Part shown: positions 31,093-52,569 of the stretch, one piece after another | Numbering within the stretch: the first letter of the stretch is position 1 | Layout of the letters: every line of letters starts with the position of its first letter | Source: an uncultured Pseudomonadota bacterium | GTDB lineage: Bacteria; Pseudomonadota; Alphaproteobacteria; Rs-D84 | Direction: 5' to 3' | DNA: 64,000 nt | Assembly (NCBI GenBank): GCA_902774285.1 | Contig: CACYHO010000002.1 | Location: 27,023-91,022, forward strand | Notes under the pieces: generated by a model | Databases searched by the model: none | Seen by the model: the letters and a program-made list of their open reading frames with translations, nothing else | What the model was told of the DNA's origin: nothing | Program-made: the position numbers and the translations under genes

Positions 31093-34000
31093 TTAGTCCA
31101 CATTTACCGATGCATCGTGTGCATTATAGACTTTGTTACCAATTGCAACACGCAATTTCTTTGAAGAACCATTGTGAATCGGAACATTTTTATCTTTTGT
31201 TAACATTATGTACATTGGGCTGCCCCTTGTTCCAAACACTAATACTGCCCCAGCAGGTTTTTCTGCATACATACATATTTTGTCGTCGCCATTACCGATA
31301 TGTAACCATTTACCAGATTGACATTCAAATTCCCATTTTGCCCATAATGCTTTGTTACCAGTTGAACCCTTGGCAATCTGTGTAACAGGGTTGCCATTAA
31401 ATTCAGGGTTATCATACCAGCCAGCAAAGTTATAAGCTGTCTTGGTTGGTGTTCCAAGCGTTATGGTATCTGTTGCAACAGTATATGTTTCCAGTGCATC
31501 ATCATACGTTCCACCATCAAGATTATATGTTATTGTATAAGTATGCGCTTCACAAGTCGCCAGCGTGTTCGCAGAACCAAGCAACGCTGTTGTTGATACA
31601 TCTGCACCAGGGGTTACATCATAACCGGTTTTGCAACTTGTTGGTTCGCAGGTCCTTGTTCCGTCTTTGTAAACATGGCCTGTAACTGATTTCGCATTCG
31701 GCACATCTAATTTGTTACATGTGCGATAGCACTGATCAATTGATGTTGCTAATGCGACAGATTTTGGATGTGATAATGGACAAGATTGACATACGTTATT
31801 ACCGTCCAGATACTGGCCAGCCGCACAAGTTATCCAATGTGCATACAAATCAACGTCACCAACAAATTCAGATTCTTCTGTTACCTCTGTTCCATTTGCA
31901 GTAAACCAACCAATAAATTTATACCCGTCTTTTGTTAAGTTTGGCAATGTTAATTCGGCCAATCCATAATTATCTGCCGCAGATTCTTTATAATTAATAT
32001 TTTGTGTTTCTGTTTCGTCGCCGTTATGATAGGTCACAATTGCATAACAAGATTCATGTGTATCATTAGAACCCTTTACAGAATGAGGATACACGTCGCC
32101 ACAACCATCGCACATAACCTTGTTTTGTAAATTTTCACGATTCAACCAATCTGGCATATAATTCGTGTACATATTCGTTGGACATGATATTGCGATTTGG
32201 GTGTTATTAAACATAGAAGTTGTCACATCTATATTATTAGTATTTGTTAAATTCGTACTCAAGAACCCATACGGTATATAATCAGGCTCATCAGAATCAG
32301 TTAGTACAGCTGGGCTAAATTTTTTCAAATTTATGCAACCATCAAATGTGGACCCAAATAAATACGGAGAAACACTGCCTGTCAAATTACTAAATAGGTT
32401 AACAGGGACTTTTGTCAAACCGCTACAACCAGAGAATGTGCCAAAAAACATCGACCCTGCCGAACCAGAAACACCTTGACCATTTGCATTAACAAACAAG
32501 TGTTCCGGTATTGATTTTAAACCACTGCAACCTTCAAAGGTGTTATAAAACATATAACTTGCCGCGCCAGAAACACCTTTAAACAAGTCTTCTGGCAATG
32601 ATGTCAGTCCGCTACAACCGCTGAATGTGCTTTCAAACATATAATCTGTCGCGCCAAAAACATCTGTAAATAATGTTGAATTACCATTTTCATCAATTGG
32701 CAGAGATGTTAATCTAGTACACCCCTTGAATGTTTGACTAAACTGTGGTTGTTGTGACGGATCATTTGAACCATCATTTAATGTCGGGAATATCGCACTT
32801 AATGAACCGGATATAGATACAATTTTTTTAGGATTCGACCCATAGTCTCTACCAAAATGTATGGTTGGCACGTTCTGCGTCATACTATATTGTTCTGCAA
32901 TTCCAGCATATTTAATAGTGTGTTCAGTACCAGATTCCCATATGCAATTATATTCATACATATCTGTGTTTTGTTTATCTATAACGCCAACTTGTTTTCC
33001 AGTATTATTAAAGTTTCCACCCGTGCCACAATCTATATAAAATTCGCCAAATGCACTAATCCATGTAGAGAAGGTTCCGCCGTCGTCAACCGTAGTCACA
33101 GTAAATTTTGCAGGGATACAGTGTTTATTTTCATTGTTGTCTGTATATTCTATGTTGTTTTCATCACATAGATATTGTGCGTATAATGTGATATCGCGCG
33201 CAATACTTGTGTCCACAGAATCTACACGATTACCGTTTTCATCTTGCCATTCTGTAAACTGGAAACCATCATGTTCTGGTATTGGCAAACGTGCTATTGT
33301 GGCCATTCTGACATTATATCCTGTTGGTTCTATTGTGTTTCCACCATCCGTATTATAATATACATGGTAAGCAACCGGCGTATAAACACAGGTATTTATG
33401 CCGTTGCTGTATTTACGCCCAGCAACAGTGTAATGTTCACGTTCTTCACAAAGTTTGTAACAATCATCGGCAGACTTTGCACCAACATCCGACAATGGAT
33501 AATCTTCATCACAGGACATGATAATATTTGGTGTATTTGAATACGCGATAGTTCCACCAGGGCAATATACACCATCGCCTGCACATTGCGCACATTCTGT
33601 TGAATTGGCCATCAAATAATATCCAGGATCACAATGTGTAGTTACAAGTGTAAATTTAGCATAGAATGTTTTTGCACCCCTGATGTTTGCATTTGGCGCA
33701 TAACCATTGGTAGATGACGAGAAGACAGAATTATTATAACGCAAATACCAACGTTCAAAATTATATCCAGGAACATTTATCTGACTTTTTGTTGGCAATC
33801 TGATACCGTTGCTTGCCGTGTATTTTGCAGACCCCAAGAAACTCAAATCTATTTCATTACCGTCAGTATCATATCCCTTGTAGAAAACATCATATTCAAC
33901 ATCGGCATAAGATATTACTGGGGTACATGTAATATCGCTGCTTTGTATTGCCATCGTTCCAGTATATGTTTGTCCGTTACATGTCCATCCAGTTATACTG

Positions 34001-34470
34001 CCAACAGTTATTTCGCATTCTTCTGTTGTTGGGACATTTACATTTGATTCAACAAAGCCTGTGCGTTCTATTGTTTTGTCATCTGTACAATTATATGTTA
34101 TTGTTCTGATATCTGGATTCTTAATCCATTTAACATATAATTTTATATTCTTGTAATTTGCCATTGCCCCAGAAATACTGGTTACAGTAGCACCACTTGT
34201 GGAATTCAAACGCCATCCATTGAATGTGTAATCTGTTTTTGTTGGCACATATAAAGTCGTTTCTGGTGTTTCAATATTATATGTTTGTGGATTCGTCAAA
34301 CCAGTATCCAATGAACCACCATCCATGTAATACGTAATAGTATATGATTTTGGAACACAAATATTGCTGTTCATTGCGTAATGATTATCACAATTGCATT
34401 GTGCAACAAGACCGCCAGCGCTTGTTGAATGAGCAGGGCAAGCTTCACAACTGTCAGTGGTTGTATTCAA
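31093..34470 (-). CDS. C-terminal segment of the giant repeat surface protein (Flg_new repeats, one FYIDCG + BspA-LRR module, Cys-rich modules)
   Basis: This frame is open upstream to 34680, beyond the listed Met. It has no signal peptide of its own. Repeats carry GY.F.GW ... LYA.W, and LRR units look like F..TFSGCSGLTSLP. Confidence 0.75.
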   Translation of the reverse strand: MNTTTDSCEACPAHSTSAGGLVAQCNCDNHYAMNSNICVPKSYTITYYMDGGSLDTGLTNPQTYNIETPETTLYVPTKTDYTFNGWRLNSTSGATVTSISGAMANYKNIKLYVKWIKNPDIRTITYNCTDDKTIERTGFVESNVNVPTTEECEITVGSITGWTCNGQTYTGTMAIQSSDITCTPVISYADVEYDVFYKGYDTDGNEIDLSFLGSAKYTASNGIRLPTKSQINVPGYNFERWYLRYNNSVFSSSTNGYAPNANIRGAKTFYAKFTLVTTHCDPGYYLMANSTECAQCAGDGVYCPGGTIAYSNTPNIIMSCDEDYPLSDVGAKSADDCYKLCEEREHYTVAGRKYSNGINTCVYTPVAYHVYYNTDGGNTIEPTGYNVRMATIARLPIPEHDGFQFTEWQDENGNRVDSVDTSIARDITLYAQYLCDENNIEYTDNNENKHCIPAKFTVTTVDDGGTFSTWISAFGEFYIDCGTGGNFNNTGKQVGVIDKQNTDMYEYNCIWESGTEHTIKYAGIAEQYSMTQNVPTIHFGRDYGSNPKKIVSISGSLSAIFPTLNDGSNDPSQQPQFSQTFKGCTRLTSLPIDENGNSTLFTDVFGATDYMFESTFSGCSGLTSLPEDLFKGVSGAASYMFYNTFEGCSGLKSIPEHLFVNANGQGVSGSAGSMFFGTFSGCSGLTKVPVNLFSNLTGSVSPYLFGSTFDGCINLKKFSPAVLTDSDEPDYIPYGFLSTNLTNTNNIDVTTSMFNNTQIAISCPTNMYTNYMPDWLNRENLQNKVMCDGCGDVYPHSVKGSNDTHESCYAIVTYHNGDETETQNINYKESAADNYGLAELTLPNLTKDGYKFIGWFTANGTEVTEESEFVGDVDLYAHWITCAAGQYLDGNNVCQSCPLSHPKSVALATSIDQCYRTCNKLDVPNAKSVTGHVYKDGTRTCEPTSCKTGYDVTPGADVSTTALLGSANTLATCEAHTYTITYNLDGGTYDDALETYTVATDTITLGTPTKTAYNFAGWYDNPEFNGNPVTQIAKGSTGNKALWAKWEFECQSGKWLHIGNGDDKICMYAEKPAGAVLVFGTRGSPMYIMLTKDKNVPIHNGSSKKLRVAIGNKVYNAHDASVNVD

Positions 34471-34643: not shown

Positions 34644-34880
34644 TTATATTATATGTTGCAACAGGTGTATAACCAATTCTTTATTTCCTGTTGAACCCTG
34701 TGCAACCATATCAACAGCAGAACCAGATAATGCTTCGTTGTCATACCAGCCCGCAAAAGTGTATCCGTTGCGGACAGCATTCTGTGGTAATATTATATCA
34801 GCAGAATTAACAGTATATTGTTTCTGTGGATATGTTGTACCACCGTTTGAATGATATTTTATAGTGTATCTTTGTATATC
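34644..34880 (-). pseudogene. Out-of-frame Flg_new repeat joining the middle and C-terminal giant-gene segments
   Basis: A third frame reads YTIKYHSNGGTTYPQKQYTVNSADIILPQNAVRNGYTFAGWYDNEALSGSAVDMVAQGSTGNKEL. That is a complete canonical repeat, reachable only by one frame change at each end. Confidence 0.7.
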
Positions 34881-37800
34881 CAGTATATGTTACAACACAA
34901 CCATTATTCACAATGTCACCACTGGACTTCGTTGTTCCATCGGCCAATTTCCAATTAACAAATGTATAACCATTACGAACAGGTGCGTCTGGCAATGTAA
35001 AATCACTACCATATTCGCAACTGCCATTGTCTATCAAAGTGCCACCGTTTTCATTCCAATCTAATATTATTGTGTTTGCTACACAGCTTTCACCATTATC
35101 ATTATAACCTTCATTACATACACATTCTGTTGCTAATCCACCATTGCTTGACGAATTGACAGGGCAATCAATACACACACCATCTTGTATATATTGATTT
35201 GCTTCACAAGTCAAAGGTTTTACCTTGGCCCATACTGTCATATTGTTTGCCACACTGCCAGCAACACCTGTCGTGGTCGCACCAGAAAGACTTGAATTAG
35301 AATACCATGCTATAAACCTATAATTAGGAATATTAACATCTGCTTTATTTGGATATGCTACCGATTGCCCGATGGTTCTTTTTGTATAACGTTCTGCAAA
35401 CATATCAGATATATCATGAACGACACCATCAACATCTTTGAATTTGTAAACTATATTGTATTCTATCAATTCGATGTCGGCAAAGAAATGCAAGTCCCCA
35501 AATGACGAACCTTGCTCAATTGTTTTTGTGGTTTCACAGTTTTCTGTCAATTCTGCATTCGTGCACCATGCATTGAATTTATATCCAGCCACAGACGGGT
35601 TATTCAATGTGAATGTTGGTGTTTCTTTAGTATATGTTGTTCTATTAGCAACTGTTTTACCGTATGGTATTGTATAAGATATACTATATGGAATCGCTTC
35701 CCATTTTGCATACAATACAACTGTTGCATTATTATCCGGGGTCAATCTTGAAACAGTTCCTTTGTCAGTATAAACTTGATCAGAGCAGGTGGCAGTATTA
35801 CACCAGCCAACAAAATTATAACCAGATCTTGCATAATGATTTTCAGGCAATTGTGTTTCCGCGGTATATTGTAAGTTTTCAACGGCATCCACATTACCAG
35901 ATTCAGCACCATTACCATCGAATACTATATTATATGTATTAACTGTTGTCTGGGCCACACATCCAACATCGTGATTTGGCATCTTATTATTATCAACAAA
36001 ATTATCACCACAGTTCCATGCTGTTAATGTATGACCAGGATTATTACAACGTGCATAATCCAGCAATTCAACATCATCGTTATATTCCATACCACCAACA
36101 ATTATGTTATTACCATTGTCACAATCATATGAAATTGCATATTGTTCAATATCCCAATTTGCATGCATTGTAACAACACCTGATTCAGGAACATTATCGT
36201 TAATTTTGCGTTCATTATTATCGATGCGAATATCGTTATATTCGTTTCCTTTGTTATCTATCCAACCAATAAATGTTCTGCCTTCAACAGCGGTTGGAAC
36301 GCACAATGGCACAGCATTTCTTTCAGCAATATGATATGTTTGTACATCACAATTTTCAGATCCTTCGTATTCTATATCAGCCTTGTACCAACAAACATCG
36401 CGTGCTGTTTGACCGTAACGAATCTTGCTGTGTTCAGAATCAATTACATAATTACCATATGTTGCATCACACGGTACATAACAATAATCGCGAGATGGTG
36501 CGCATCCGCCAATTTTATCAGAACCTGGGCATTGACTGTCTGTCGTTACCATAGCATACGAACCAAAATCCGCCCGACAAGCTCTAATTCCTTGATCCGT
36601 TGTTGCGTTGTAAACATAGTCGCCAGCCGCAAAACCAGTACAATAAAATCCAACAGGGCAATTTGTACATTTATCATAATCTCCGGCTTTAAGGTATGTT
36701 CCTGGCTCGCATGCTATATTATCTTGTAATTTCCATTGTGCATACATAGTTATATCTGATAATTTTTCTTTTACTGTATCGCCGACATTATATGTTTCGT
36801 TCTCATTTGATTTCCAGCCATTGAACATATAACCTTTTCTTACATATGTGCTTTCTGGCATTGCACAACCAGTAGAATACGGGCAAGACATTGATCCCAC
36901 AGCATCAGCATTTGTGACATACATAGAATTTGGGTTAAATGAAACATTAAATTGTATTTCTTCCCAAGGGCTTGGCACACAAGATACATCATATGTTACA
37001 TGCCAGTTTTCCACAGAGTCTGTAGGAACATAATGTGTTTCTAAATTTGCATCAACATACGAACATGTCCAACCTGTAAATATCCAACCAGTGCGCGAAC
37101 AAATCATTGAATTACCAGTATTGGAAACGAATGTATAAGGATCAGCATATATCAAACTATCAGTATGTACAATATCGCCATTATCATCGCAACGATAAGT
37201 TATTTCATATGTTTCCGGCACCCATGATGCATAGAATGTTTTTGAACCAATTGAATTTTGCGGAATTGATGTTATTATATTGCCAGTTAATTCAACGTTA
37301 TCGTACCAGCCGGCAAAATCATAACCAATTCTTGACGCATCATACAATGTTACATCTTGTGTAGTGTTATAAGTTGACGGATTTTGATCATCATTAGATG
37401 CATTTGCAACACAATCTGACGAACTGTCTGGACATAATACATATTGTATTTGATATCCATATGTACATGTTGATATATCATCCCCATTAACATCATAATA
37501 CGCATGGCCACCTAGTTCTGACACATACGTTCCGCCCAAAGAATCAGTTGCAGGGCAGGCCGTGTAACATTGATTAATTGTATCATTCGAACCAGATACC
37601 GATGTATAATTGTTTGGACATGGATCACACCATGGTCTGCCCGCGGCACTAAATATACCATTAGTTTGTGATTTTTGGTTTTTATATGTTCCCTCAGGAC
37701 AATTTGACTTAAAAGCCGTACTTGCGAACATATCTGTTACTAATCCAGTCGCACTGGTTGTAATATTATCCAAGAAGAATCCAGGTATATAATTTAATGT

Positions 37801-39705
37801 TTCATTTGTATTGGTGTTATATACATGCCAAACAGACGAACCATCAAAGGTATTGGCAAACATACTTGTTGCACCACCTGACAATCCTGCAAACAGATCT
37901 GAACGTATTGTTGATAAATTTCTCATAGAAGCAAATGTGTAATTAAACGCTTCATTCGCAGAACCACTTAATCCAGCGAACAAACCACTTGGTAATGATG
38001 ACAATGCTGTTCCACTGAATGTATAAGCAAACATTCGATTTGCAACCTGTGTCGTATTTGCAGATGCATTTGATATGCCTGGGAACAAATGGGTTGGTAA
38101 TGACAACAAACTTGTCCCACTGAATGTAGCGTGATACATAGCTGTGTTTGAACCTGTTACATGTTTAAATAATAACGAAGCTCCATTTGTATCTGATGGC
38201 AATGTTTTCAAAGAACGACAACCAGAGAATGTGCTTGAAAATAATCTGTCTGCGTTGCCACTAATACTATCAAACAAAGTATCTGGTATTGATGTCAAAC
38301 CAGCACTATCAAATGTTTGCAAAAACATTGCACTATATGCGCCATTAAGATCTGCAAATAAATCACCAGGTAAAGTTGTCAAAGCAGAACAATTCTTAAA
38401 CGTCTTGTCAAACAACGCTGTCGCACCTGTAATATCATCAAACAAACCACTTGGTAATAATGTTAACCCAGTATTCGAGAATGTCCGGTAAAACATTTCA
38501 TCTACACCGGCACCAGATATACCACTAAATAATGTAGATTTGTTATTAGTATCAACTGGCAATGCTGTCAAATATGTTGCGCCGTCAAATGTTCTGCCAA
38601 ATCTTGGCTGATCTGCATACCCAGCAGAACCATTATTCTTAGTCGGGAATATTGCACCCAATGATCCTGTTATTGACGCAATCTTTGCCGGAGTAGAATC
38701 GCTTGTTGAATCATTAACACCAGTTCCAAATCTGATTGCCGGTGTGTCTATATAACTTCCATCCGTCCATGATGCGGTAGAATAACGTTCCGCCAATCCA
38801 CCAAACTTAATTGTGTGGGAATTTGCCGCGTTTCCATATGTACATGTATATGTTGCATTTGTTGTATTGCCACGTGTAATAACTTTACCAACAACATCAT
38901 TTGCTGTTGAAGTCAACACACCATCATCGCCACAATCTACATAGAAAGTCCCATATGCAGTCATATTAAATTTAAATGTATCATTCGCAACCATTGGTCG
39001 TGTTACGACTGTAAACTTAACAGGCGTCCATTTAGCATAGAATGTTTTGTTGCCGGTATCTGATGCTGATATTGTATGGCTTGATGCACAATTTTGTAGT
39101 TGTTCATCTGTGCACCATCCAATAAAGAAATACCCATCGCGTGTTGGAACACTATCTATTGTTGCGCCAATACCAAACACATATGAAGCAGGGGCATTAT
39201 TATTTGTTGCACCATCCATATTATTATAGGTAATAGCGTATCCATATGTACATGTTGATATATCATCCCCATTAACATCATAATACGCATGGCCACCCAG
39301 TTCTGACACATACGTTCCGCCCAAAGAATCAGTTGCAGGGCATTCTGTATAACATTGATTAATTGTATCATTCGAACCAGATACCGATGTATAATTATTT
39401 GGACATGGATCACACCATGGTTTAGATGCAGCTCTTCCAAATTCAGGTTTTACCTGATATGTGCCAGCCGGACATGGATTATCAAAACCAGAATTAAGGA
39501 ACATATTGTACATAATATTATTCGTTCTGTAATTGGTTCCGGCAGTATAAATATTATTTAAAAATGACGCATCAATATAATTATGATTAACACCATTGGC
39601 ATCTGGCATTTTCAGATTTGAACAACCATAGAATGTGCTTGCGAACATACCTTCTGCTGTGCTGGTTATACCAGAGAATGTATTCAAAGGTATTGTACCA
39701 TTCAA
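34807..39705 (-). CDS. Middle segment of the giant repeat surface protein
   Basis: The listed start is a TTG inside an LRR unit, and there is no signal peptide. It repeats the last 27 residues of the upstream ORF. Content is BspA-type LRRs, the FYVDCG domain, CDPCPNNYTS Cys modules and many Flg_new repeats. Confidence 0.75.
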   Translation of the reverse strand: MNGTIPLNTFSGITSTAEGMFASTFYGCSNLKMPDANGVNHNYIDASFLNNIYTAGTNYRTNNIMYNMFLNSGFDNPCPAGTYQVKPEFGRAASKPWCDPCPNNYTSVSGSNDTINQCYTECPATDSLGGTYVSELGGHAYYDVNGDDISTCTYGYAITYNNMDGATNNNAPASYVFGIGATIDSVPTRDGYFFIGWCTDEQLQNCASSHTISASDTGNKTFYAKWTPVKFTVVTRPMVANDTFKFNMTAYGTFYVDCGDDGVLTSTANDVVGKVITRGNTTNATYTCTYGNAANSHTIKFGGLAERYSTASWTDGSYIDTPAIRFGTGVNDSTSDSTPAKIASITGSLGAIFPTKNNGSAGYADQPRFGRTFDGATYLTALPVDTNNKSTLFSGISGAGVDEMFYRTFSNTGLTLLPSGLFDDITGATALFDKTFKNCSALTTLPGDLFADLNGAYSAMFLQTFDSAGLTSIPDTLFDSISGNADRLFSSTFSGCRSLKTLPSDTNGASLLFKHVTGSNTAMYHATFSGTSLLSLPTHLFPGISNASANTTQVANRMFAYTFSGTALSSLPSGLFAGLSGSANEAFNYTFASMRNLSTIRSDLFAGLSGGATSMFANTFDGSSVWHVYNTNTNETLNYIPGFFLDNITTSATGLVTDMFASTAFKSNCPEGTYKNQKSQTNGIFSAAGRPWCDPCPNNYTSVSGSNDTINQCYTACPATDSLGGTYVSELGGHAYYDVNGDDISTCTYGYQIQYVLCPDSSSDCVANASNDDQNPSTYNTTQDVTLYDASRIGYDFAGWYDNVELTGNIITSIPQNSIGSKTFYASWVPETYEITYRCDDNGDIVHTDSLIYADPYTFVSNTGNSMICSRTGWIFTGWTCSYVDANLETHYVPTDSVENWHVTYDVSCVPSPWEEIQFNVSFNPNSMYVTNADAVGSMSCPYSTGCAMPESTYVRKGYMFNGWKSNENETYNVGDTVKEKLSDITMYAQWKLQDNIACEPGTYLKAGDYDKCTNCPVGFYCTGFAAGDYVYNATTDQGIRACRADFGSYAMVTTDSQCPGSDKIGGCAPSRDYCYVPCDATYGNYVIDSEHSKIRYGQTARDVCWYKADIEYEGSENCDVQTYHIAERNAVPLCVPTAVEGRTFIGWIDNKGNEYNDIRIDNNERKINDNVPESGVVTMHANWDIEQYAISYDCDNGNNIIVGGMEYNDDVELLDYARCNNPGHTLTAWNCGDNFVDNNKMPNHDVGCVAQTTVNTYNIVFDGNGAESGNVDAVENLQYTAETQLPENHYARSGYNFVGWCNTATCSDQVYTDKGTVSRLTPDNNATVVLYAKWEAIPYSISYTIPYGKTVANRTTYTKETPTFTLNNPSVAGYKFNAWCTNAELTENCETTKTIEQGSSFGDLHFFADIELIEYNIVYKFKDVDGVVHDISDMFAERYTKRTIGQSVAYPNKADVNIPNYRFIAWYSNSSLSGATTTGVAGSVANNMTVWAKVKPLTCEANQYIQDGVCIDCPVNSSSNGGLATECVCNEGYNDNGESCVANTIILDWNENGGTLIDNGSCEYGSDFTLPDAPVRNGYTFVNWKLADGTTKSSGDIVNNGCVVTYTGYTKIHYKISFKRWYNISTETIYC

Positions 39706-39806
39706 ACCAGAACAATTAGAATGTGCTTGCGAACATACCTTCTGCTGTGCTGGTTATACCAGAGAATGTATTCAAAGGTATTGTACCATTCAAACCAGAA
39801 CAATTA
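39631..39806. repeat. Perfect 88-bp tandem duplication (2 x 88 bp) inside an LRR unit
   Basis: 39631-39718 and 39719-39806 are identical base for base when read by eye. The junction reads TTC TAA TTG on the minus strand, and that TAA is the stop of the 39716-52165 ORF. Confidence 0.9.
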
Positions 39807-42800
39807 TAGAATGTATTTGCAAACATATTATCAGCACCAGTTCCACCAACGATATTTTTGAAACTCGGAACATTACCGGTTAAACCGCTACAATTCTGGA
39901 ATGTGCCAGAAAACATACCTGATGCCGCACTGTTTATACCACTAAAGGCATCTGATGGCACACCGCTTAAGCCAGAACAACCAGAGAATGTTTGTCTAAA
40001 CATACTATCTGCACCACCAACTATATTTTTGAAGCTCGGGGCATTGCCGGTTAAACCGCTGCAACCATAGAATGTACCAGAAAACATCTCTGTTGCTGCA
40101 CTGTTTATACCCAAAAACGCATCTGGTGATATTGGTCCACTCAAACCAGAGCAACCTTGAAATGTCCTGAAAAACATTCGACTTTGACCAGCGCCATTGA
40201 TATTGCTGAAATATGGGATGCGGCCAGTCAATTTTGAACAACCAGCGAATGTATTATCAAACATACTTTGTGCTGTGCCGTTTATACCTTCAAAAGCATC
40301 AGATGGTATTGTACCATTCAAACCAGAACAATTATAGAATGTGTGTCTAAACATATTATCCGCGCCAGTTCCGCCAACAATATTTTTGAAACTTGGGACA
40401 CTACCAGTCAACCCAGAACAACCATAGAATGTTACAGCGAACATACTGGACGCTGCACTTGTTATACCCAAAAACGCATCAGGTGATATTGGTCCAGTCA
40501 AACCGGAACAATTACGGAATGTACCAGAAAACATAGATGGTTTACCTTCACCATGGATGTTGCTGAAATCTGGGATTCCGCCAGTCAATTTTGAACACCC
40601 TTCGAATGTGCTCTCAAACATCATAGTTCTAGTTCCGGTAACGCCAGAGAATATATTGGTTGGTATCGTCCCTTCTATTTCCGATCCGCCCGCAAATGTT
40701 TCGCCAAACCCAGGTTGAGATTTCCAATTATTATTTGACAGATTTGAAACCGTTTTAAATATTGAACCTAACGAACCATATATTTTGTTAATTTTCTTTA
40801 CATTTGTATCTTGCAACAATTGGGTGCCGGTATATCCACTGTATGTATAATTTACTTTGTTAAATGATATTGATGTTTCACTACCATTGCCATATCCTTC
40901 TGCTTCACCAGCAAAATTTATTGTTTTTGTTCCAGCCGTTGTATATGTACATGTGTATATCCGTTTATTTGGATAATCTGGACGATAAATACGTGTTCCG
41001 TACAGATTGTCAACATCAGTTGGGTTAGCATTGCTGGTCAAAGTCCCGTCCGCGCCGCAATCTACATAAAATGTCCCGGCCGCAGCAATACTAAATCCAA
41101 ATGTTTTATCATCATCTGGGATAACAACATCCAACCAGAACTTACGTGGATAACAAGTCCCCAAATATTCAATTTCTGTTGATGAACAAATACCGGTTAA
41201 CAATGTCCATTTTGCATATAATTCTTTGTTACCAGTTGAACCGTGTGTAATTTCTGTAATACGGGTATCAAATGTTGATTCTGCAAACCAACCATCAAAT
41301 GCATATCCTGTCTTTGTCGGATCTGCCAAAGTTATTGTTTCACTGTTGACATTATAACTTGATGGGTTGTTTGCATTATTTGTTCCATCATCAAGGTTAT
41401 ATGTGATTGTGTATGTATATTTACATTGTGAAACATCGTCCGCAACACCTTCACCAACATAATATGCATTACCAGACAGATATGTTCCCTGGTTATTTGT
41501 ATCAGTCACAGGGCAGGTCGTATAACACTGATTGATTGTGTCATTTGAACCAGATACCGATGTATAATTATTTGGACATGGCGAACACCATGGTTTAGAT
41601 GCAGCGCTTCCAAATTCAGATTTTACCTGATATGTGCCAGCCGGACATGGATTATCAAAACCAGAGTCGTTGAACATATCAGTCATAATATTGTTGGTAC
41701 TATAATTTGTTCCTGCAGTATAAACGTTATTTAAAAACGATCCATCAACATAATTATGAACAACACCATTGTTATCTGGCATTTGATTCAAGTTAGAACA
41801 ACCATAGAATGTACCTGCAAACATGCCTCGTGCTGTTCCGGTTATACCAGAAAATACATCTGATGGTATCGTACCGTTTAATCCGGAACACGAGAAAAAT
41901 GTGGCAATAAACATATTATTAGCACCAGTTCCACCAACGATGTTTTTGAAACTCGGGACATTACCGGTTAAACCGCTACAACCTGAGAATGTATATGCAA
42001 ACATACTTGCTGCTGCGCTGTTTATACCAGAGAATGCATCTGATGGTATTGTGCTATTCAAACCAGAACAACCATAGAATGTACCTGCAAACATGCTATC
42101 AGCACCACCAATTATATTTTTGAAACTCGGGACTTTACCGGTTAAACCGCTACAATTATGGAATGTACCAGAAAACATCTCTGTTGCTGCACTGTTTATA
42201 CCCAAAAATGCATCTGATGGTATTGTACCGTTTAATCCAGAACAACCGTTAAATGTCCTATAAAACATCCGATTTTGACCAGCGCCACTGATATTACTAA
42301 AATCTGGGACACCGCCGGTCAATTTTGAACAACCATCGAATGTACTCTCAAACATGTATATTCTTGTTCCGGTAACGCCAGAGAATATATTGGCTGGTAT
42401 CGTCTCTTCTATTTCCGATCCGCCAGCAAATGTTTCCATAAACATAGGCTGGGCTTCCCAGTTATTATTTGACAGATTTGTAATCGTTTTAAATATTGAA
42501 CCTAACGAACCATATATTTTGTTAATTTTCTTTACATTTGTATCTTGTTGTAATAACTGACTGTCAGTATATCCAACAGATGTAAAATTCATTGTGTTAA
42601 ATGATATTGATGTTTCAGTACCATTGCCATATCCTTCTGCTTCACCAGCAAAGTTTATTGTTTTTGTTCCAGCCGTTGTATATGTACATGTGTATATCCG
42701 TTTATTTGGATAATCTGGACGATAAATACGTGTTCCGTGCAGATTGTCAACATCAGTTGGGTCGGCATTGCTGGTCAATGTTCCATCTGCACCACAATCT

Positions 42801-45800
42801 ACATAGAATGTCCCAGCAGCTGCAATCATGAATTGGAATTGCTTATCATCATCTGGGATAACAATATCCATCCAGAACTTACGTGGATAACAAGTCCCCA
42901 AATATTCAATTTCTGTTGATGAACAAATACCGGTTAACAATGTCCATTTTGCATATAATTCTTTATTACCAGTTGAACCGTGTGTAATTTCTGTAATACG
43001 GGTATCAAATGTTGATTCTGCAAACCAACCATCAAATGTATATCCTGTCTTTGTCGGATCTGCCAAAGTTATTGTTTCACTGTTGACATTATAACTTGAT
43101 GGGTTGTTTGCATTATTTGTTCCATCATCAAGGTTGTATGTAATTGTGTATGTGTTTTGACTCCATTTCGCATATAATGTTAAGTCGACATTTGTGACAC
43201 TGGAACCCGATGCATATACAACCCCACCATCGGCCGATGTTGCCCAACCACCAAAAGAATATCCTGTGCGGTTTGGTTCACAAAGTGTTGTTGTACCAGA
43301 ATAGGTTGTATTATCACATCCAGAACCACCATCTAAATTATATGTTATTGTGTACGTGTTTGGATTACAACTTGGTGATGTGCTAACTTGCGAATTTGTA
43401 TTCCCATAGAACGTTCCAGATTGTTCACCATTTGTATTATAATATTCAACGCAAGTATATGTGTATTTACAACGATTTGGATCATCAGATACGATCGATT
43501 CACAAGATGCTACACTAACATCATGCAGACATCTACAATTACTAAATTTTGCATACCATGTTGTATCGGCAGTAGTTGATACTGTACTTCTTAACAATCC
43601 ATCTGCCTGTATTTTTTGCACATTATTGCTGTCATAATACCCTTGGAATAATCCTGATGTGCTTGTTGGGATTGTCACAGATGTTATCGTGTTGCCATTG
43701 GCGTCTGTCCATCTGCTGTTATATATTTCTTTGATGGTTCCCATACCACCAGATCCGCCATTTGTCACATCATCTAATGTCACGGTGTATGTATTTGATG
43801 TCCATTTTGCATATAATGTTTGATCGCCACCACTTAAATCAGCAGATGTATTTAATGGGTTCCCAGTATATGCCAAACTGGTATACCAACCAGCAAATGT
43901 AAATCCATCGCGCACAGGTATTGGGAATTCGTCTGACACACAAGCATCATCAAATTCGGCAGCATGCATCTTTGGATTTGCTATTACACCACCGGCACAG
44001 CTGATCGCACAGTTATTAGTGCATTCAGACATTGTGTTAGAAAATACCCATGTATCACTTGCCGAAGTCGAAACATTGCTGTTATTATCAACAAAAGATT
44101 CAACTTTGCACCAACAATTATTACCAGACGCAGTAGTATTTGGATTGCCAACTGTTCCTGCACTAGCGGCCGATGTTGTGCTGCACCATGATTTACCATT
44201 GATGGTACCGTATGTCCATTCTACCGCCCAATCACCATTGGACAAATCGTCAAACAACGCGTTATTGCAATCTTCGCTTATTGCTGTATTACCATTATCG
44301 CCTGCATAACAATAAGTGCCGTTTAATCTTTTGCTTTTGAACATCACCATTTCAGCATCTGTTTCATCTATTATCGCAGATAAACATGTGCCCATATTGC
44401 CACCATCATTATAATAATAATTTCTGTCAGCGATTGTGTTCCCACCATATGTATTAAATGAAATTGTTGCATAGCACTGTTTTTTCATCCATGCGGCGCG
44501 TTGTGAATGAGTATAGGCACCGTTTGTTTCCACAGAACAAGATTTATAAGTATCACTTACATCAGTTGTTACGTCACCTGTTTCAAGATCAGTCAAATTA
44601 CCATATACAGATATTGCCCCAATATTGTTTGAATAAAATTCTCTTTCTTCTTCTTCCATATTTTCATTATTTATCACTGCGTCATATGTTGCAGTATAGT
44701 AACCCGCGTCACCTTCGGTACATACATATGGTGCCCCCATATGTGATTTGATTGTATTAATAACATTTGTTGTACATGTTGAATCACCATCACATTGATT
44801 TATCTGGCTTGCAATTTGCGTTTCAAAATCAATATCAGATTGTGGGATATAATAACCATTGGCACATAATACAATGTCATAAAAACCAAGTGCAGCACCT
44901 GGCAGCAACGGCAAACAATTTGTATAAGCATGTGTAGTTGAATCATATGCACATGATGTCGTACTCATTGCATTTCTTGTGTTTGCAGGCAAAGAGCTGT
45001 CATAATTTTGGTCTGCCGAGATAGAATAACCAAAATTGGAAGTTTCAATTACAGATTGTTTACCATATACAAAACCAGCAGCACAATCTCCTTCTGTATC
45101 AGACAACTCTATGTCACCAGACAACCAAGGTAACGTAGCATAACCAGTGATTGAATATGCGCCTTCTTGGGCATTTGTTGTTGTCGGACAGTCTATTTTA
45201 CCTTGATCAATATTAGTTATTGTGATTGGACCACCCGGACAATAATAACCACCTCCGTAACATTCTTCACAATCGTTACCATTTGTTGTATTTTCCGCTC
45301 TGACATAATATCCCGGCGGGCAGGTTATACGTGTCCATTTTGCATATAGTTCTTTGTCACCATACATATCTGATGTGATTTTGTTTATTGTATTACCGTT
45401 ATCATCATACCAATAACCAGAAAACACATGATCCGCCACATTAACATTTGTTGGCAGGTTGATGGTGCTGCCCGTTGTATAAGAGGTCGGATTAAGGCCG
45501 TTTATTACTTCGCCATTATAACTTGTTTTATATGTAATAGTGTATGTGTTTGGTGTCCATTGGGCAGTAAATCTTACCGTTCCAGATGTTGCGCGCAAGT
45601 TTTTAAATGTTTTTGCCGTTATTCCAGATAAACTGGTTGCGTTGGTTGTTGATGAACCAATAGTATGTTCCGTATCATCCATACCGGTTATATTCCATCC
45701 GGCAAAAGTATATCCATCGCGGGTTGGACCCGATTTCGTAAAACTGGAGTTATAGGTCGCATTAGAACTAGTGATACTGCTGTTACCGTCATTTAAATCT

Positions 45801-48800
45801 GTTTCAACCGTGTATCGATTTGCGGTCCAATTAGCATATGCTGTTATATTGCCGTTTGTTGTATAAACAGCATCCAATATATTTCCAGAAGAATCTATGT
45901 ATTGTGTTCCGTTACCACTAGTGGAAAAATTATACCCATTAAATGTGTATCCCAAGCGGGTTGGTAATGTTATTGGTGTTGACAGGCAATTTGCAGAGGT
46001 TCTATTTTCAGCAACAGACGCATCAGCGGCATAATAAGTGCAAGGATTATTGCTTTCATTATAACGATACCAGAATTCAGACACATTTGACGATGTATTT
46101 GCGCCATTATCTTGCAATGTAACCTTATAAACGAGTGGTTCCCAATGTGCATATAATGTAATAGCTGCAGACGGAGTATAGCGAGAAGGCCCAATATATG
46201 TCGAACCTGAAGTACACCTGGCGACACAATTACCACCGTTTTGTGTTTCATACCAACCAAGGAAATTGTATCCATCGCGGGTATTTACAACTGGTGGATA
46301 AACATATTGTGGTTGCCATTGTGCGTGCCATACATTATTATTTGTGGTATATAATTTTCCTGCGTTTCTACCATCAGTTGTCATATATCCAGCGCCAGAA
46401 ATATATTGTGTTCCACCAGTGACATCGCTGTAATAACCGTCAAATTCGTAAGTTGACTTTGTATTATCGTCAGTCAAAGCATTTTTTATGCTTCCGCCAT
46501 TTGCATTATAAGATACGGTTATATAATCAGAACGTTGCGGTATTATTATTGGGTTTGAAGAATTCACAATTGTTGTGCGTGCACTGTCCAAATAAACGTT
46601 TGTATTATATGTTGTATAAATGGTGGCAGTACCATTTGTAGTCGCGTTTGCATTATCCAATGTAATTGCATATCCATTTGGATCACAACTTGGCGATGTG
46701 CTGGATTGTGAGTTTGTATTCCCATAAAATGTTCCAGATTGTGCGCCGTTTGTATTATAATATTCACGACATGTATATGTGTATTTGCAACGATTTGGAT
46801 CATCAGATGCGATTGATTCACAAGATGCTACACCAGTAGCAGTTGTACACACACAATTACTAAATTTTGCATACCATGTTGCATTGGCAGTGATTAATGT
46901 TTTATTTGTTAAAGCCCCATTGGCTGATATTTTTTGTACATTATTGCTGTCATAATATCCTTGGAATAATCCTGATGCACTTGTTGGGATTGTCACAGAT
47001 GTTATTGTGTTGCCATTGGCGTCTGTCCATTTGTTGCCATATATTTCTTTGATGGTTCCCATACCACCAGATCCACCATTTGTCGCATCATCCAATGTCA
47101 CAGTGTATGTATTTGGTGTCCATTGGGCATATATTGGGAAACTACGAGTTGAATCAGACGCTTCATCATCCAATTCACCAGTGTCATCATCTTCACTATC
47201 ATAGCCAATATAACCATTCCGTGTTATCATCAAGTTTCCGCCAGTTTGTGCATCAAAATATCCATTAAATGTATATCCAGTGTAATCTGGTACCGATTTG
47301 CCACATTGTGAAGTTGTTATATTATAATCATCCCATGCCTCTATTGTCGCTGCATCATCACAGTATATACCGGAAGTTAAATCGCTTCCATAGTCAGCAT
47401 TACCGCTTGATACCGCATACATATATTGAGGAGTTGGCGAACCACCCCTTGCGTACAATGTAACAGTATAAACAGGAACCCAACGCGCATATAATGTCAC
47501 ATTTGCGTCTGTCTTGTTCCAAGTGCGCACAGGAGAACCTTTGCGGGTATAATATGCAGTGCCACCTGTTGCCGCAGATGTATCATACCAACCACCAAAC
47601 GCATATCCAGATCTTGTCGGTTTTGTTGTTGACGACAATGTCGGCATTGATTGACCATATATCGCAGGATCACTGACAGTAGGTGCCGTTCCATCGCCAC
47701 CATTTAAATTAAATGTCAAATTTGAAGCCTTCGCTATCCATCGGGCATATATCGTGAAATTACCGCTAGATTCACCAGCCAAATAATCAATATCGTCACC
47801 ATCTACAGAAGTGTAACCTGTTTCACTGATAACCTGATGCCCACCACTTTGTGTATTATAATATCCATCAAATGTATATCCAGTACGTGTTGGCACCGCA
47901 AGTATAGAGTTTCCTTGTCTATCTTTGTAATCTGTTATAAGCTTATTAGACGCGTTTACTGTTGCGGCTGCATCAAAATATACACCAAACGAAATACCAT
48001 CATATTCATAGTCTTCTGAGACGGCATACATATATTGGGTTGGTGAACCACCATTTGCGTTCAATGTAATAGTATAAACAGGGACCCAACGCGCATATAA
48101 TGTCACATTTGCGGCTGTCTTGTTCCAAGTGCGCGCGGAAGAACCATCGCGACGATAATATTGTGTTCCGTCGCCAACATCAGGGTCGTCCCACCAACCA
48201 CCAAACGCATATCCTGTTTTTGTTGGTTTTGTTGTTGACGACAATGTCGGCATTGATTGACCAGCTGTTGCAGGACCAGCTGTTGGTGCAGTACCAGTTC
48301 CGCCATTCAAATTAAATGTCAGATTCGAAGAAGCCAATGTCCATTTGGCAGTAAATGTTTTACCACTTGTATAAGTCCATTTGAACGCAGTACCTGCTGG
48401 TCTGTCAGATGTTCCATCATTCCAGCCTGCAAATGTATAACCCGTCTTTGCACATGTGTTATTAGCATCTGGTGTAAAGTTAGCATTATATGTAGCCGTA
48501 CCATTAGTAGGCGGATTACCGGTCGCGCCAGTTCCACATGCATATTTTACGGTATATGTATTGGCTGCGCAAGTTGAAGCAGTTCCTGGGAAGCCCCTGT
48601 CAACAGAGCCAAGCAAAGCAGCACGATACGCTAGATTATCATTGTCGTCTGCCATAAGGCGATACGCACAAATAAACGAACAATCCCCCGCACAATAATG
48701 ATTTTGATCAAAATTATTGGTTAACACCCAAGAAGAAGATACCTTTTGCCAGTTTTCACCGTCTGCTGTATATCCATCAATATGACACCAACAATGTCCC

Positions 48801-51800
48801 GCGTCAGTATCATATGGCCGATCATTAATTGAAGATTGTGTCGAAAATGTAGAATTTGTACCATTAAAATTGACCGTTCCCGATGTTGTGCTGCACGCAG
48901 CATGACCGCGGATTATACCACGATCACCATAATTTACCGCAAATGAATTATTATCACCAGCAGTCAGGCCATAGAAACTTGGATCATGATTTGTGTATTC
49001 CTTATAATTAGCATTATAATTCGCATCGATACTTGCCTGACTTTCAGCCGCACCCGTTCCAATTATGTCTACTAAATCTACAGCAGAGCCTGGATTAAAT
49101 GTATAACCCGTATCACATGTGAATTTAGAATGATATGTTTTGTCACCAATGGCTGTTGTAGATATGGTTTGTGTCGTGGCACAGTTTGTTAATCCGGCAT
49201 CCAAGCACCATTTATCAAATGATCCATGCGCTTTTGATGGTGTCGCATTGATTGTTGCGCCAGTGCCAACAGTATATGTTGTTGTCGGTGTTAAACCAGT
49301 CAATGTCATTCCACCGTCCATATACGTGATGTCATATGTATTTTTTACCCATTTGGCTGTTAATGTTATTGTGTCGGTACGATACTGACTACCTGCTGCA
49401 GTTGCTATAGATTCGCCAGCAGAATATATCTGTTTTTCTTCACACAGTCCATCGTTGATATCAAGGACACAGATCCAACCATCAAATGTATAACCTGTCT
49501 TTGTATAAGTATTTGCCGGTGCAGCAGTGCAATTTCCGCCATATGTACACGTCTGATTTGCTGGTGTTGTTCCACCAGTATTTCCATAACCATAATACTT
49601 TACATAAAATGTGTTTACTGTCCATTGTGCATATAATGTTGTGACGGATGTATTATCATAATTCTTTACGGATGCCCCATTTTTATCGTAATATTGTGTT
49701 CCACCACTTGTTGCAGTGAAATAACCATTAAATTTATATCCTGTGCGTGTCGGCAAAGTTATCGGTGTTGGCATCGCAGAACCATATGTCGCCGTCACAG
49801 ATGTTGTACCCGCCGTAGCATCTGAAGCATTTTTATTCAATGTAACAGTGTATGTGCTTGGGGCGTTTTGTGTCCATTTTGCGATCAAAGTGACTTCGTC
49901 TGTATTTGTATAATGATTGGCTATATAATTTGCCACTGACGATACATTTATCGAACCAGATGACGATATCCATTGTTCTGTTTGATAATTTGCATCATAA
50001 TATCCTGCAAAAGTATATCCAGAAAGTGTTGGTGGTGTAGTACTACTTATATTTCCGCTGCTGTTACCCTGAACCAAGTTAACGTTTGAATCATACATAT
50101 TACCATTTGACAAAGCATACAAAATATTTTTAGTGCCGGTTCCACCGTTATGATTCAAACGAACCTTGTAATATTTTGAATTACATGCTGTGTTAGTATT
50201 TGCCCATTTGGCATATAACACCAGATTACCAGATTGATTGGAAGAGTTTGTAACAGCATTGCCTGAAAAGTTCGCTGTTTTATACCAACCAACAAATTCA
50301 TCGTTTGCCTTTGAAACATCAATCAAACGAACCGCATAGTTTCCATCAGATTCATACTGATATTTAACGACAACCGGTGGATTACAGTTGTTTTGCATAA
50401 ATGTAACCGTCGCATAACAGTCGTTTATGCTGACCGCACCAATGTCTGAATTAGGGAAGGTTGATGGACAGTTTGAACATGTTGTTGAATTTGCATATTG
50501 CCCGGGTGAACAAATCGTCGCATTTTCACATCCTGACAATGTGTTATTATAACATCTGCCACAAACAGCACCACTAATATGCTTAATAAACAGCTTATCT
50601 TGGTAGGTCAATTTCCGCATATTAGCCGGACAAGATTCGCTTAATACGGGTGTGACCTTAACACCATTTACATACTCTGGTGCGGTAAAAGAATGAAATG
50701 CGGACGTACTAGAACCGATATCATATCCGGTATCAGCAAAATTAGTAATCAGAGATTCAGAAACATAATAATCACTTGCATCATACTTAGCCAACGCAAA
50801 CATATTTTTAAATGCCATTTTCGCTGGAACACCGCTTAACCTATTAAACAATGTTTCCGGCAAACCATGTAATCCATCGCCAGATAAACCGGCACCACGG
50901 AATGTGTCATAAAACAACCCATATGATGGTGTTCCGTATATATTTCCAAACAAATCTTTGGGAATATATTTTAAATATTTTGCACCATTAAATGTATTAT
51001 AATACATATATGATTGTTGTTCACCCGCGATTGTTTCAAATAATGCAGGCTGAATTTCGGTTAAACCTTCATTGCCATAAAAGGTCCCATGGAACAAACC
51101 GGCGCTCGTTCCGTGCAACCCTGAAAATAAGCCGGTTGGAATATTTTGTATACCGGAACCAGAAAAAGTATATGCGAACATACAAATACCAGGCTCTCCA
51201 CTTACACCATCAAAAACATTTGCAGGTATCGATGTCATGTTTTTCGTGCCAGAAAAAGTTTCACGAAATATTGGTTGTTTATTACCATTGGTTAATGTTT
51301 TGAATATTTTTCCCAAACTTCCCGATACACTTTGTACTTTTTCTCCACTGCCACTTGCTATTCTGAATACATTCCATTTTGGGCATCGATTATAATTTGA
51401 ATCAGAAGTCTCTGTATTGTCCACCATAGATGCGCTTATTGCCAAATAATCCTCTACATCGCCACTAAATCTGATGATATGTTCGCCCGCCAAACTGTAC
51501 GAACACGTAACTGTTTGTTTGCCCGAACAACTATAATTACCGGAACTTGATGTACAATTGATACCTTTTATATAAACCTTTGCCACGGTTCCAGAGACCG
51601 TCGTGCTGAGATATTGCAGCGAATTTGCTTCACTGTAACTGGGTGTTCCACCTAAACCACAATCAACATAAAATGTTCCTTGTGCTGCACCACCAAACTC
51701 AAATGATATTGAAGTTGTAGAACTCGTCGTTTTAACACTGAAATATGCGGTTTTACATGTCCCGTTGAAATTAATCTCGTTCAAAGAACACGTGCTTGAT

Positions 51801-52359: not shown

Positions 52360-52569
52360 ATGAAAGACGATGTAAGAATGCTGAAAACCAGCGAAATTTC
52401 AAGCGATGTTTTCGTTATTACGCCCGCTCAGATCGATATTATTTCTCAGCAATTCGGCGATGCGTTGGCGGAAGCGATGAATATCAGACCTTTGGCACAA
52501 AAAATCCGCATTATCGCGTCGGATATTTTGGTTAAAACCCTGCAGGGCGCCAAAACTATGGGCGAATAA
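52360..52569 (+). CDS. Small hypothetical protein, 69 aa, with atypical codon usage
   Basis: A GGGGG purine tract lies 6-8 nt upstream of the ATG. Third codon positions are much richer in G/C than in neighbouring genes. No motif recognised. Confidence 0.35.
   Translation: MKDDVRMLKTSEISSDVFVITPAQIDIISQQFGDALAEAMNIRPLAQKIRIIASDILVKTLQGAKTMGE

Follow-up and report, generated by a model that had tools for sequence, protein, structure and literature searches.

A giant gene that is intact in related metagenome assemblies is broken into three open reading frames (ORFs) in the window, as the whole 64-kb stretch of DNA analysed here is called, and a perfect tandem duplication of 88 bp creates the first of the stops. 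Tentatively, and with a confidence just short of even, the 88-bp repeat is read as a non-programmed lesion private to this assembly, most likely the result of imprecise joining in assembly or scaffolding. It probably reflects an error in the assembly or else a gene inactivated very recently, rather than a genetic switch. The lesions in the gene are private to one assembly, their junctions lack usable homology, they coincide with variable sites, and there is almost no point divergence from the closest relative; from this we infer that the joins were made by software, not by the cell. The organism itself would most likely carry an intact gene for a protein of ~7000 aa.

In its intact form in the related assemblies, the giant gene encodes 7030 aa, and it occupies positions 31093–52165 of the window on the minus strand, a length of 21,073 nt. 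Its three pieces, all on the minus strand, are an ORF of 4149 aa at 39716–52165, an ORF of 1632 aa at 34807–39705, and an ORF of 1125 aa at 31093–34470, and homology to the intact protein resumes for the last piece at 34674. The duplicated unit corresponds to about one repeat of 29–30 aa of the PARCEL type (...NCSGLNGTIPLNTFSGITSTAEGMFASTF), and its copies lie on the minus strand at 39631–39718 (copy 1 in plus-strand order) and 39719–39806 (copy 2). The two 88-mers are 100% identical, as an earlier note on this DNA had claimed. The minus strand reads ACA TTC TAA TTG at the copy junction and ACA TTC TAT AAT TGT in the native context one unit upstream, and the TA/TATA microhomology at the join and the creation of a TAA by the duplication, both described in the earlier note, are confirmed from the sequence. 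This TAA spans the copy junction at 39716–39718 on the minus strand (junction sequence AAACCAGAACAATTAGAATGTGCTTGCGAAC, window 39704–39734) and ends the 4149-aa ORF. The period-88 identity extends over 90 nt, with 39629–39718 matching 39717–39806, which gives a junction microhomology of 2 nt (TA), and TRF calls an array of period 88 at the duplication. Since the neighbouring repeat units, with periods of 81–96 nt, are at most 57% identical in DNA and 38 nt is the most that any other exact tandem run reaches in the 64-kb window, the 88-bp identity is far beyond chance. Other perfect tandem duplications with periods of 25–400 nt number four in 1.48 Mb of compared loci; in three of them the period is a multiple of 3, and around the fourth there are only short ORFs.

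Compared with the intact allele, the window lacks 41 nt at the junction 34879/34880 (...CTTTGTATAT/CCAGTATATG...) and 67 nt at the junction 34675/34676 (...GGTGTATAACCA/ATTCTTTATTTCC...). Each deletion shifts the frame of the minus-strand gene; the 41-nt junction has no microhomology and the 67-nt junction has 1 nt. The two deletions add up to 108 nt and restore the frame, yet a TAA at 34807–34809 lies in the shifted stretch between them. Removal of one 88-bp copy in silico fuses the 4149-aa and 1632-aa ORFs with the very reading that had been predicted at the outset, and the fused ORF of 5756 aa is still truncated relative to the intact 7030 aa. Because two further frameshifting deletions follow, losing one 88-bp copy alone would not restore the protein. 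When all three lesions are undone in silico, the product is a 7030-aa protein with one residue different. The giant protein has a signal-peptide-like N-terminus, and the stops cut off a conserved C-terminal domain of ~80 aa (31096–31338, minus strand) from the part that bears it.

An exact-sequence look-up has shown that the 4149-aa and 1125-aa ORFs share a 90% cluster with proteins of 7030 aa and 7239 aa, which derive from two other metagenome assemblies that carry the gene as one intact ORF. The contig of the 7030-aa version, k141_1108579 of ERZ27280243, matches the window at 100% identity over 20,750, 16,371 and 1,199 nt and has one SNP in a further 4,837 nt, which makes one SNP in ~43 kb overall. 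This sole substitution, at window position 39299 in the minus-strand gene, gives Leu in the window and in the 7239-aa allele and Pro in the 7030-aa allele; since Leu is common to the former two, the substitution probably occurred on the other lineage. The earlier note had proposed a comparison with related strains or metagenome-assembled genomes, and this near-identical contig proves to have a single 88-bp copy (copy 2 is missing from it), the 41 nt and 67 nt that are missing from the window, and an intact 7030-aa ORF. None of the three lesions, the duplication and the two deletions, occurs in any other assembly compared.

The 7239-aa version, from scaffold STEW19-1_SAMEA5383888_METAG-scaffold_23 of ERZ28613750 (sample SAMEA5383888), has been compared as a protein. 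Relative to the 7030-aa protein, it has 59 additional residues in frame exactly at the duplicated unit, consisting of a second copy and an extra unit SSLIGDIPDFSRIQGNGATS; 149 additional residues in frame at the window's deletion sites, which are a tandem copy of two Flg_new repeats; and, within residues 3622–3785, 16 substitutions and one inserted residue that match a paralogous module. The 41- and 67-nt deletions, ~4.8 kb downstream of the duplication, are located at the second of these sites of length difference, and the 41-nt deletion is situated at the left edge of a 447-nt unit of which the 7239-aa allele has two tandem copies. The extra unit SSLIGDIPDFSRIQGNGATS is encoded nowhere in the window, indicating that the long allele has real extra sequence that is not derivable from the short allele. 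The contigs of both intact versions encode proteins identical to the SecA, 249-aa and 69-aa products of the window. The duplicated unit is thus found in three allelic states, namely as a single copy, as an out-of-frame pair, and as an in-frame pair with an extra unit. As judged from the assembled alleles, this shows that the in-frame repeat number truly varies between assemblies at two fixed sites of the giant gene.

Contigs of the same strain assembled by MEGAHIT with k87 (ERZ1029112) break inside the giant gene, once at a 96-nt exact repeat near 43,040 and once at 34,662, 13 nt from the junction of the 67-nt deletion, which shows that the region is hard to assemble. Stewart et al. 2019 (PMC6785717) used a k-list that ends in 87 for co-assembly, and this setting together with the STEW19 sample label suggests that the related contigs originate from cattle rumen.

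In the favored reading of a mis-join in assembly, heterogeneity in repeat number between assemblies of the same strain would tangle the assembly graph at two sites, where an overlap left not fully merged would appear as a perfect tandem copy and over-trimmed joins would appear as the 41- and 67-nt losses. In agreement with this, a contig that differs from the window by one SNP in ~43 kb still has one copy and both missing segments, and the lesions lie at exactly the two sites with a large difference in length between the 7239-aa and 7030-aa proteins, as expected of alternative assembler paths. The breaks of the k87 contigs in the giant gene, one of them so close to a deletion junction, point in the same direction. 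So does the structure of the joins. The neighbouring units are 90 nt apart and have the 9-mer ATAGAATGT in common at their borders, the unit spacing across the duplication is 90, 88 and 90 nt, and the join in the window falls 2 nt short of this 9-nt homology. A join within ATAGAATGT would give an in-frame duplication of 90 nt reading ...MFASTFYNCSGLNG..., which is the hybrid present in the 7239-aa allele. The 88-bp join therefore bypasses an in-register homology of 9 nt, the expected substrate of a slippage-type event, and the microhomology amounts to only 1–2 nt at two junctions and is absent from the third. A set of three large indels with no more than one substitution would also be an odd spectrum for natural decay.

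Several features are harder to reconcile with a mis-join. The k-mers at the junctions are novel, in that a 14-mer that crosses one of the three joins, with 3 nt or more to either side, is found nowhere else in the window, whereas a pure de Bruijn graph assembler outputs only k-mers found in reads. For an artefact, the contigs must therefore have passed through scaffolding, gap-closing, merging or polishing. The window contains no Ns and, over its 64 kb, no second duplication of 88 bp, and the exact repeats of greatest length in the gene (96, 93 and 85 nt, at 40.9–43.1 kb) are assembled exactly as in the intact allele. Moreover, every difference lies at or downstream of the first stop, as real decay following an initial hit would also give. 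Two specific routes to an artefact have been considered. De Bruijn mis-threading via shared k-mers is rejected because no join-spanning 14-mer is found elsewhere in the window, and an overlap of k − 1 nt with k = 89 seems a poor source of the 88 bp, as the copies do not begin and end at the points of divergence that the two intact allele proteins lead one to expect.

The window resembles mis-joins at tandem repeats in short-read metagenomes in that indels are found only at sites variable in repeat number, the junctions are free of homology, the flanks otherwise match, and the same places are broken or different in other assemblies of the strain; it departs from plain de Bruijn graph contigs in its novel junction k-mers. 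If the lesions are an artefact, three ORFs in the record wrongly stand for one intact 7030-aa gene, and false pseudogenes would be counted in annotation or pangenome studies based on this record.

The alternative that competes most closely with a mis-join, plausible but in our view doubtful, is that the lesions are real and that a dispensable giant gene, truncated at codon 4150, is being lost without any programmed function. The duplication could have arisen by an illegitimate 88-bp duplication on the short allele or through loss of the middle unit, in a deletion of 89 bp, from a long two-copy allele of the 7239-aa type, and the untranslated 3′ part would already be decaying by deletions. Since SSLIGDIPDFSRIQGNGATS is not encoded in the window, two unit copies may be ancestral. 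If the sequence consists of plain de Bruijn graph contigs, the novel junction k-mers must derive from reads. The duplication, the SNP at 39299 and the 41- and 67-nt deletions all fall at the new stop or downstream of it, where the sequence would be newly neutral. Bacterial pseudogenes show a deletional bias, with which the two later events, both deletions, agree. The locus is also a hypervariable slot among relatives with SecA 94.6–97.9% identical to that of the window. As expected of a pseudogene of a dispensable gene, several independent disabling lesions are found here and a close relative has the gene intact, provided that the lesions exist in the DNA.

Against this, three large indels without usable homology and 0–1 substitutions in ~43 kb make an unusual natural spectrum, the coincidence with the two variable sites of another assembly needs a further explanation, and no other assembly has any of the three lesions. 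Giant repetitive surface-protein genes of host-associated bacteria are likewise found split into several ORFs where a close relative has them intact, and the dispensability of the gene and the variability of the locus add to the likeness. Such genes are usually split by single-base frameshifts or nonsense mutations, unlike the window, where the lesions are three homology-free large indels with almost no substitutions. If the lesion is real, the 4149-aa product would keep the signal-peptide-like N-terminus and lose ~2880 residues including the conserved C-terminal domain, an ordinary loss of a dispensable giant adhesin gene. Translational rescue of the distal part from the in-frame ATGs at 39648 or 39609 is rejected, because no ribosome-binding site lies at the proper distance from either of them and a signal peptide would be missing from the product.

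The earlier note had offered three explanations, of which recent inactivation and assembly artefact survive, whereas the reversible on/off or length switch is weakened by the two extra frameshifts, by a join 2 nt off the 9-nt homology, and by the lack of a second assembly with the duplication among those compared. Such a switch, in which the duplication would be gained and lost at appreciable frequency between the 88-bp copies and would toggle the distal part of an adhesin, is very unlikely. Equally improbable is its extended form, in which the one-copy, the out-of-frame two-copy and the in-frame three-unit alleles would interconvert, so that the distal 2900 residues and the C-terminal domain are attached or not. 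The host in this reading would be an uncultured gut alphaproteobacterium, probably with a reduced genome. A perfect tandem duplication inside an ORF can indeed be lost precisely, three allelic states of the unit exist across assemblies, and the product is a surface protein of a host-associated bacterium, all of which would suit a switch. However, reversion would give 5756 aa, not 7030 aa, and would leave the conserved C-terminal domain disconnected. The duplication, with its out-of-register join, is found in only one assembly, and the two states are not seen together in one sample; the assemblies with a single copy or with the in-frame expansion stem from other samples. Nothing in the sequence favors recurrence, since the microhomology is 2 nt and the nearby 9-nt homology gives an in-frame product.

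Phase variation by tandem duplication is on record for cap3A, cap8E/wchA and tts of Streptococcus pneumoniae (Waite et al. 2001, 2003, cited in PMC4022640). The window shares with cap3A, cap8E and tts a perfect, frame-shifting tandem duplication within an ORF whose loss restores the local frame, and the duplication here, with 88 bp at 100% identity, a length not divisible by 3 and a TAA at the join, has the same form. In pneumococcus both states occur in one culture and reversion restores function (PMC4022640), whereas the window presents one state in one assembly. A further difference from the pneumococcal loci is that reversion in the window would not restore the full protein and that the lesion may not exist in the DNA at all. 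Loss of one copy does not restore the full product here, because repairs of 41 nt and 67 nt are also needed. The case would be biologically notable only if a reversible switch at the population level were true. A contingency locus of the simple-sequence-repeat type, with many copies of a unit of 1–9 nt, is dismissed, as TRF finds no short-unit tract at the duplication site, where the unit is 88 nt in two copies. The probability left over beyond an artefact, a pseudogene and a switch belongs to other or mixed explanations.

The broken protein is built of repeats. The Flg_new family (PF09479, Listeria-Bacteroides repeat) matches the three consecutive ORF pieces with 346.5, 163.3 and 129.5 bits in 14, 6 and 4 stretches, respectively, and multiple repeats score above the gathering score; Cys-rich ephrin-receptor-like segments give weak matches in the ORFs. 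The duplicated unit is the last of a PARCEL/TIGR02167-type array at 39610–40717 on the minus strand with units of 87–90 nt, and TIGR02167 passes its cut-off of 30 on this array narrowly, with 31.0 bits. The earlier note had taken the duplicated stretch for about one LRR repeat, a view that sequence models do not bear out: the units appear to be of the 29–30-aa PARCEL/TIGR02167 type, and no Pfam LRR family matches either ORF or the repeat array even at E ≤ 1. Pfam scans have not found PF03382 on the window's protein; PF03382 is present as a precomputed match on three weaker relatives from the protein search. The PARCEL repeat TIGR02167 is equated with DUF285 (Roske et al. 2010, PMC2996958). The giant protein is like the PARCEL proteins (PMC2996958) in having tandem amphipathic repeats of variable number, in being surface-targeted, and in belonging to a host-associated bacterium with a probably small genome. 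It differs from them (PMC2996958) in that its units are 29–30 aa instead of 25–26 aa, that the repeats form part of a multi-module protein of 7030 aa that also has Flg_new repeats, and that the host is an alphaproteobacterium.

Beyond the three assemblies, exact searches with flanking sequence have given no match, either with 55-mers among the GTDB species representatives or with 33-mers among the JGI metagenomes. A protein-based scan of the GTDB representatives has yielded relatives at 30–63% identity only, so there is no orthologous junction to compare beyond the three assemblies. A word-indexed protein search with the junction region has returned only proteins of up to 546 aa at up to 54% identity; it missed the known 7030-aa protein and yielded no extra alleles. 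Among relatives with SecA 94.6–97.9% identical to that of the window, the corresponding place is taken by a 5087-aa protein that is 36–44% identical or by an unrelated protein of at least 2453 aa, and GCA_017511715.1, in which SecA is 95.4% identical, lacks a giant gene in the interval from the conserved 69-aa ORF to SecA. The comparison shows that the slot next to secA varies in content among close relatives.

The neighbouring genes include secA, dnaE, ruvB, exbB/exbD-like genes and argS, indicating that the window is part of a chromosome, and the G+C content is ~37%. The nearest genomes are metagenome-assembled genomes of Alphaproteobacteria from ruminant and other guts, including Candidatus Enterousia, and genomes of this lineage have been reported to be smaller than about 1 Mb (PMC12306168). 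If the organism resembles these relatives, the giant gene would make up ~2% of a genome of roughly 0.9 Mb.

The slot that contains the giant surface-protein gene (window positions 31093-52360), bounded by a conserved 69-aa ORF on the plus strand at 52360-52569, was compared with the corresponding loci L087, L088 and L089 of close relatives, and the content between the 69-aa ORF and secA is hypervariable among them. The slot of the window is occupied by the gene that encodes 7030 or 7239 aa in the intact alleles from other metagenome assemblies, and that of L087 by a 5087-aa gene with 36-44% identity. In L088 the slot is filled by an unrelated gene encoding 2453 aa or more, in which DNA similarity is confined to the last ~400 nt, corresponding to the conserved C-terminal end, and no giant gene lies in the slot of L089 (GCA_017511715.1).

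The final 81 aa of the giant protein (31096-31338, minus strand) form a conserved C-terminal domain with the consensus ...YAKWxFxCESGKWLHIG..DKxCLY...YYxxL..D...PIHxGSxKKxRV..G...YNAHDASV, which includes two invariant Cys residues. A phmmer search of 1.84 billion representatives has identified relatives of this domain in 119 proteins, which range from 57 to 5654 aa in length and, with few exceptions, carry it at the extreme C-terminus. The domain has no Pfam match, and its AlphaFold2 model, with six strands and a mean pLDDT of 92.6, has no Foldseek match in the PDB at E<=0.001 (best TM 0.38). The domain may serve as a module that sorts or anchors the surface proteins of one family, whose members are highly variable.

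Within the giant gene, an entire module is segmentally duplicated (40751-41398 and 42485-43135), the copies being spaced 1737 nt apart and sharing exact repeats, the longest of 96 nt. The MEGAHIT k87 assembly of the same strain is broken at this duplication. The 7239-aa allele has the sequence of the paralogous module in place of aa 3622-3785, a replacement that originated either by gene conversion or by assembler mis-threading. Relative to the intact allele, the window carries two frameshifting deletions of 41 and 67 nt (108 nt in sum) at 34675-34880, spaced 204 nt apart. Because of these deletions, the 1632-aa ORF described in the earlier note stops at 34807 and is followed by a separate 1125-aa ORF.

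The 816-aa ORF at 19559-22009 (minus strand) has no Pfam match, and its position is kept in relatives, where the proteins are 804-888 aa long. A perfect 37-nt tandem duplication is present in another Candidatus Enterousia MAG (L014, 7943-8025), in a stretch with short ORFs only.
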